A stretch of 64,000 nucleotides of DNA, taken from assembly GCF_003334315.1 (NCBI RefSeq), contig NZ_QOWR01000004.1. One strand, given 5' to 3'. Of the stretch, positions 63,475-64,000 are shown piece by piece. The translations under genes were made by a program, and so were the position numbers. The notes below the pieces were generated by a model that did not search any database, had not been told where the DNA came from, and saw nothing but the letters and a program-made list of their open reading frames with translations. The stretch's first letter is position 1. Each line of letters begins with the position of its first letter. This DNA is from Escherichia coli (GTDB lineage: Bacteria; Pseudomonadota; Gammaproteobacteria; Enterobacterales; Enterobacteriaceae).

Positions 63475-63846
63475 TTATCATCATTCTTATTACCCATTTT
63501 TAATGAATTACAGGGCTTTTAATACACCGCAGCAATAACAGGTTGAGTTATCTCAACACAAAGTAATAACCGTTAAGGGTGTAGCCTATGATCAACACAA
63601 ATATGAAATATTGGTCCTGGATGGGCGCGTTTTCTCTGTCGATGCTCTTCTGGGCCGAACTCCTCTGGATCATTACTCACTGATCCCTGACCCCGTTGCG
63701 GCGGGGTTTTCATTTGCTTTGCCACAAGGTTTCTCCTCTTTTATCAATTTGGGTTGTTATCAAATCGTTACGCGATGTTTGTGTTATCTTTAATATTCAC
63801 CCTGAAGAGAATCAGGGCTTCGCAACCCTGTCATTAAGGAGGAGCT

Positions 63847-64000
63847 ATGTCGTCAACCCTACGAGAAGCCAGTAAGGACGCGTTGCAGGCCAAAGATAAA
63901 ACTTACCACTACTACAGCCTGCCGCTTGCTGCCAAATCACTGGGCGATATCACCCGTCTACCCAAGTCACTCAAAGTTTTGCTCGAAAACCTGCTGCGCT
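63847..64000 (+). CDS. acnA: aconitate hydratase A (5' partial, continues beyond window)
   Basis: ATG 63847 followed by MSSTLREASKDALQAKDKTYHYYSLPLAAKSLGDITRLPKSLKVLLENLLR. Confidence 0.92.
   Translation, partial: MSSTLREASKDALQAKDKTYHYYSLPLAAKSLGDITRLPKSLKVLLENLLR

Follow-up and report, generated by a model that had tools for sequence, protein, structure and literature searches.

The ymiA-yciX-ymiC operon of Escherichia coli is PhoQP-dependent, and its last gene encodes a small protein localised to the membrane (PMC11429745), the synthesis of which was demonstrated with a chromosomal epitope tag (PMC6001520). In the literature on products of the DNA considered here (positions 63611..63793 of the sequence analysed), YmiC alone was reported (PMC6001520, PMC11429745). 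An RNA 3' end was found in E. coli less than 200 nt downstream of ymiC, and ymiC-acnA was listed among the validated small ORFs with such ends (Adams et al. 2021, PMC7815308). The authors thereby placed ymiC-acnA in the class of upstream ORFs with premature 3' ends in the leader, such as mdtU-mdtJI. This class assignment concerns ymiC and not the 60-codon ORF that is the subject of this work; furthermore, acnA has its own P2 promoter 3' of the terminator, and a regulation of acnA through ymiC translation is putative only.

Other descriptions bear on the same DNA. In Salmonella, cDNAs of STnc180 were recovered by deep sequencing after Hfq co-immunoprecipitation, and its northern signals of 500-2000 nt were judged to be processed mRNA species (PMC2515195). 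The promoter region of acnA carries a PhoP binding site, supported by EMSA in Salmonella Enteritidis (PMC10294627). For ArcA, a site scoring at least 15 bits was predicted upstream of acnA (Park et al., PMC3798270), and initiation at the acnA promoter uses UTP followed by CTP (PMC5737558). Finally, NCBIfam holds a model, NF033069, named "acnA regulatory region 60-length spurious protein".

Identity of the 60-codon frame

The window, that is, the whole 64,000-nt stretch of E. coli DNA analysed, ends on its right side with the chromosomal order topA-cysB-ymiA-yciX-ymiC-acnA. It contains a 60-codon ORF on the plus strand (63611..63793), with a TTG start and a TAA stop at 63791-63793, the translation of which is (M/L)VLDGRVFSVDALLGRTPLDHYSLIPDPVAAGFSFALPQGFSSFINLGCYQIVTRCLCYL. 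The ORF adjoins acnA on its 5' side, the acnA ATG being at 63847. A sequence-only reading of the window had reported this ORF just upstream of acnA, in the promoter/leader region; length and position were exact, and the location is borne out by the acnA P2 promoter block (63740..63794), which overlaps the end of the ORF. The same reading had described the ORF as unassigned and devoid of recognisable features. Neither description holds: RefSeq annotates ymiC at 63588..63683, Rfam recognises STnc180 at 63515..63717, and the ORF itself bears the NF033069 name, so that the stretch contains a gene annotated in a different frame, an RNA-family match, a terminator and a conserved promoter block.

The match of the 60-aa product to NF033069.2 (acnA_upstr_60) was scored at 151.5 bits (E 7.1e-45), with residues 1-60 aligned to positions 1-60 of the 60-position profile; the curated cutoff for the whole-protein HMM score is 50 bits. 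By exact-sequence look-up in NCBI/UniRef, the peptide of the window and its K-12-type variant both carry the NF033069 name, on at least 1000 contigs, and both also bear older 'hypothetical protein' labels. The match is full-length and the site, directly upstream of acnA, is the same; no difference was found, and the ORF is that entry. The 60-aa ORF is thus a false gene call that keeps recurring and is already on record with curators. Everything about it is already known, and the ORF itself offers nothing novel.

RefSeq annotation of the locus comprises ymiA, yciX, ymiC and acnA, with nothing in the 60-aa frame. The locus is nearly universal in the species, as a 901-nt query around the ORF matched 5422 of 5426 complete E. 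coli genomes with 95-100% identity. Over a 361-nt stretch (63500-63860), strains such as CP53 and NCTC9080 were 100% identical to the window and a K-12-coordinate strain was 98.3% identical; the window allele is not of the K-12 type.

The 5' part of the ORF lies on ymiC (63588..63683, plus strand), which encodes a 31-aa small membrane protein (MINTNMKYWSWMGAFSLSMLFWAELLWIITH; UniProt YMIC_ECOLI) and is recognised by RefSeq annotation, by conservation and by the NCBIfam equivalog model NF041484 (66.3 bits, for a cutoff of 42). Codons 1-24 of the ORF (its first 73 nt, 63611-63683) overlap ymiC, in a frame offset by 2 nt. Both frames thus use the same DNA, but that of ymiC is annotated, conserved and experimentally detected, is only 31 codons long, starts at an ATG preceded by a Shine-Dalgarno sequence and ends 5' of the terminator. 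The ymiC ATG is at 63588; ymiC and the terminator were missed in the sequence-only reading, even though a mere 23 nt separate the start of the 31-aa ORF from the TTG at 63611. Within the 22 nt preceding this TTG (tgatcaacacaaatatgaaata), no Shine-Dalgarno-like purine run was detected; for comparison, the Shine-Dalgarno sequences are AAGGG for ymiC and AAGGAGGAG for acnA.

An ORF of this length is not remarkable. In the six frames of the window, 214 ORFs of at least 60 aa were counted, of which 125 belonged to the 60-99 aa class; mononucleotide shuffles yielded 173 +/- 11 ORFs of at least 60 aa. At the composition of the window, the probability that a random frame is open for 60 codons is about 0.05. 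ORFs of 60 codons are no commoner than chance expects.

Conservation of the two overlapping frames

Species-representative genomes were scanned once with a 27-nt degenerate ymiC pattern, which retrieved 20 loci, none of them from Salmonella. A chance match in Pontibacter (L013) and a contaminant (L005) were dropped; two further loci (L015 and L019) are cut by contig ends. The contaminant is a 454-bp low-coverage contig (NZ_JAHZMP010000227.1) in the assembly of Terrisporobacter mayombei DSM 6539; its ymiC coding sequence is identical to that of E. coli and its flanks are near-identical, and it almost certainly reflects contamination of the Terrisporobacter assembly. The loci kept were from Escherichia species, Citrobacter, Enterobacter, Kosakonia, Lelliottia, Pluralibacter and other Enterobacteriaceae, and 22 distinct sequences were compared.

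In every locus the YmiC frame was open and ended at the same stop codon, and the protein had the core KYWSW(M/I)GAF..S..FW. Variation was concentrated at the third positions of ymiC codons. Over the 22 distinct sequences, the ymiC frame had a pN/pS of 0.27; the corresponding values were 1.67 for the 60-aa frame and 0.96 for the third. The search pattern holds ymiC codons 7-15 fixed at their first and second positions, a source of bias in pN/pS, and the ratios were therefore recomputed without these 27 nt; they became 0.40, 1.95 and 0.76, respectively, with the same conclusion. The 60-aa frame was interrupted by a stop inside the ymiC overlap in 7 of the 22 distinct sequences, and it terminated after 7, 15, 22 or 26 codons in many relatives; CTG replaced the TTG start in half of the sequences (11 of 22). 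The judgement, made from the sequence alone, that the ORF was most likely non-coding is therefore upheld for the 60-aa frame by its pN/pS and its disruption, and fails for the region, the first 73 nt of which are coding in the ymiC frame.

The same measurements bear on the possibility that the DNA acts as a non-coding, Hfq-associated small RNA, STnc180, and that neither frame matters. The Rfam RF02079 match is strong (63515..63717, plus strand, 200.8 bits for a gathering threshold of 50 bits in this covariance model, model positions 1-208 of 208), and the Salmonella cDNAs did come from an Hfq co-immunoprecipitation (PMC2515195). We consider this reading improbable, since the only signals seen in that work were long ones attributed to processed mRNA, the ymiC frame is under purifying selection with variation at third positions, and the YmiC protein has been detected. 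The STnc180 segment is in effect the part of the ymiC mRNA that ends at the terminator. It covers the 5' 107 nt of the 60-codon ORF, including the terminator, and as an RNA-family entry it is silent on the 60-aa frame; the RNA from 63515-63717 may be dual-function, which would make the 60-aa frame no more real.

The ymiC stop and the acnA ATG were separated by a distance that varied among the loci (140, 152, 166, 167, 168, 172, 176, 178, 186, 187 nt and others), so the promoter block is read in different frames in different taxa. The spacer was plastic (L010, L012, L016, L021 and L014, for example) and the promoter block invariant throughout. Insertions of about 40-170 nt, 5' or 3' of the terminator, were observed in Citrobacter amalonaticus, C. 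sedlakii and strain RIT693, and an Enterobacteriaceae MAG (L014) had a 140-nt spacer without the terminator hairpin.

Many non-B2 E. coli have the full 60 codons open, as do two other Escherichia lineages (L004, with TTG, and L007, with CTG) and Enterobacter soli, where the frame starts with GTG. The open frame in Enterobacter soli and in some Escherichia was considered as a sign of conservation. This was rejected, as the C-terminus that they have in common is supplied by the invariant promoter block, and in other taxa that block lies in another frame. The recurring C-terminal sequence FINLGCYQ.VT..CYL followed by TAA is this block read through.

The two frames were also compared within E. coli, using the window and seven strains picked across the identity range (n=8). 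The YmiC protein was identical in all eight sequences (WP_001310756.1 in the seven annotated strains). All SNPs seen in ymiC were synonymous for YmiC; in the 60-aa frame they caused V>I, R>C or D>N changes or converted R to a stop, and one isolate has a TGA at codon 16 of that frame. Another strain carries compensating +1/-1 indels within the ORF, and a 14-bp deletion (equivalent to 63699..63712 of the window) frameshifts its second half in ATCC 25922-type strains (L022, L023 and L024). The frame was intact at 60 codons in the window and in the K-12-like, O157:H7 and EC-10 strains. The conservation check proposed on the basis of the sequence thus gave a clear answer: the frame is disrupted in close relatives (the stops in 7 of 22 sequences), and even within E. 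coli (frameshifted in 1519 of 5420 genomes).

These results leave very little room for a young, lineage-restricted gene overprinted on ymiC and translated only in those E. coli that have both the TTG and an undeleted terminator. Such a gene would account for the 60 codons being intact in the E. coli just named and in one neighbouring Escherichia species, and for the predictions made by gene callers on more than 1000 contigs, but not for a pN/pS of 1.67-1.95 in its own frame, nor for the premature stop of one isolate, the +1/-1 indels of another and a frameshifting deletion in 28% of complete genomes. It would have to be initiated at a TTG without a Shine-Dalgarno sequence, its translation would have to pass a terminator hairpin at which most transcripts presumably end, and its product is classed as spurious by NCBI curators. 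We therefore consider this second reading very improbable.

The ymiC terminator and the acnA promoter

An intrinsic terminator follows ymiC on the plus strand (63689..63717). It was identified by a terminator scan (8-bp stem, 4-nt loop and T-rich tail), by folding and by compensatory changes. The hairpin (63689..63708) consists of GACCCCGT-TGCG-GCGGGGTT and is followed by the T-rich tail TTCATTTG; its minimum free energy is -12.9 kcal/mol for the window allele and -18 for the K-12-like allele. In covariation, compensatory changes keep the pairing at 4 of 9 terminator pairs (15 sequences, several genera). The T-tract after the hairpin is weaker in the K-12 allele (GGGGTTGTCATTTG, compared with GGGGTTTTCATTTG in the window).

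Downstream of the terminator, the acnA P2 promoter/operator block (63740..63794) was near-invariant in the alignment of Escherichia, Citrobacter, Enterobacter, Kosakonia, Lelliottia and Pluralibacter. It is made of two segments, TTTATCAATTTGGGTTGTTATCAAATCGTTAC (63740..63771) and TTTGTGTTATCTTTAAT (63778..63794), and the published PhoP box TGTTTGTGTTATCTTTA was located inside the block, at 63776..63792. Repeats of the TGTTA type at 63755, 63766 and 63776, about 11 bp apart, would fit an ArcA operator, and TGtTATCTT (63782..63790) is the likely extended -10. Cunningham, Gruer and Guest are said to have placed P2, in 1997, 50 bp upstream of the acnA coding region. The distal promoter P1 would lie within yciX, close to 63440, at a distance of about 407 bp. 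From the initiation with U then C and the reported 50-bp distance, we infer that P2 transcription starts on the plus strand at T63797, followed by C63798, 50 nt 5' of the acnA ATG. The TAA stop of the 60-codon ORF falls inside the promoter block and, with the elements at these inferred positions, it likely sits between the -10 and the +1 of P2.

Several other features of the acnA leader and gene were recorded. Directly after the inferred +1, the 5' UTR can form a hairpin, CCCTGA/TCAGGG (63800-63805 with 63812-63817), which is conserved across genera (63800..63817) with one covarying pair. In an alternative pairing, CAGGG (63813-63817) could pair with CCCTG (63826-63830), just 5' of the acnA Shine-Dalgarno sequence; the minus-strand 'terminator' hit of the scan is this alternative hairpin (63813-63830). 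The acnA gene itself (aconitate hydratase A, plus strand) starts at 63847 and continues past the window end (63847..64000). Residue 12 of AcnA (63880-63882) is Ala in the window (MSSTLREASKDALQA) and Thr in all other fetched sequences of Escherichia, Citrobacter, Enterobacter, Kosakonia, Lelliottia and Pluralibacter; the Ala12 allele occurs naturally, as several E. coli genomes match the stretch with 100% identity.

There is little doubt that the 60-codon ORF is open by chance and has no product. Three functional elements, unrelated to one another, would merely be free of stops in this frame. Codons 1-24 (63611-63683) are ymiC coding sequence in a frame shifted by 2 nt, ymiC being the real gene and the last on the PhoQP-dependent ymiA-yciX-ymiC transcript. 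Codons 27-36 cross the ymiC/STnc180 terminator, the presumed end point of most upstream transcripts. Codons 44-60 and the TAA correspond to the acnA P2 promoter/operator, kept as protein-binding DNA (PhoP box, putative ArcA-like repeats and likely -10). Many strains owe an identical C-terminal 'peptide' and stop to the invariant promoter block, and the shared N-terminal part is ymiC under selection in another frame. The recurrence of this C-terminus and stop, together with that of the ymiC-derived N-terminus, would have led to repeated predictions by gene callers and to the NF033069 model. Weak pervasive translation from the TTG at 63611 may occur.

The least probable reading, which we hardly consider credible, is a regulatory leader peptide, where ribosomes crossing the hairpin would suppress termination and cause read-through into acnA: the ORF does span the hairpin and ymiC-acnA is among the possibly regulatory arrangements of an upstream ORF with a 3' end (PMC7815308), but that work names ymiC and not the 60-aa frame as the upstream ORF, the 60-aa frame across the hairpin is not conserved in relatives, it has no Shine-Dalgarno sequence, and the hairpin is wholly absent in the B2-type allele.

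The 14-bp terminator deletion and the meaning of the locus

The 14-bp deletion that frameshifts the ORF removes the 3' arm and the T-tract of the ymiC/STnc180 terminator. With a junction-specific query, the deletion allele was found in 1519 of 5420 complete E. coli genomes (about 28%), including those of ATCC 25922, Nissle 1917 and the type strain ATCC 11775. These three strains belong to phylogroup B2. The deleted allele forms no stable hairpin (-4.7 kcal/mol, z = 0.28, compared with -12.9 and -18 for the undeleted alleles). The deletion appears to be derived, since the hairpin is kept in 15 of 16 aligned non-E. coli relatives, the exception being one MAG.

Insertions were also observed in the ymiC-acnA interval: two E. 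coli strains carry IS1A there (L029, NZ_CP141736.1, 655-1445; and NZ_CM135183.1), and in 2023CK-01509 the element truncates the C-terminus of ymiC, which is annotated as a pseudogene.

In conclusion, the value of this analysis is mainly negative, and the ORF needs no further consideration. It is a textbook example of how false gene calls recur: conserved non-coding DNA, here a promoter/operator block, and a real small gene read out of frame together give a 'conserved' 60-aa ORF, for the suppression of which NCBI needed a model of its own. What is truly coding here is the 31-aa frame of ymiC; as this frame is shorter than the 60-aa ORF, reasoning from the longest ORF conceals validated genes for small proteins.

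Follow-up might be worthwhile for one point alone, the common natural deletion of the ymiC terminator in B2-type E. coli. In its carriers, about 28% of sequenced E. coli, PhoQP- or P1-driven transcripts could continue past ymiC into acnA. We would only tentatively propose that the hairpin insulates acnA from the ymiA-yciX-ymiC transcript and from P1, and that in the deletion lineages acnA is fused to the upstream operon. If true, the expression of aconitase A would have been naturally rewired throughout the lineages that carry the deletion.
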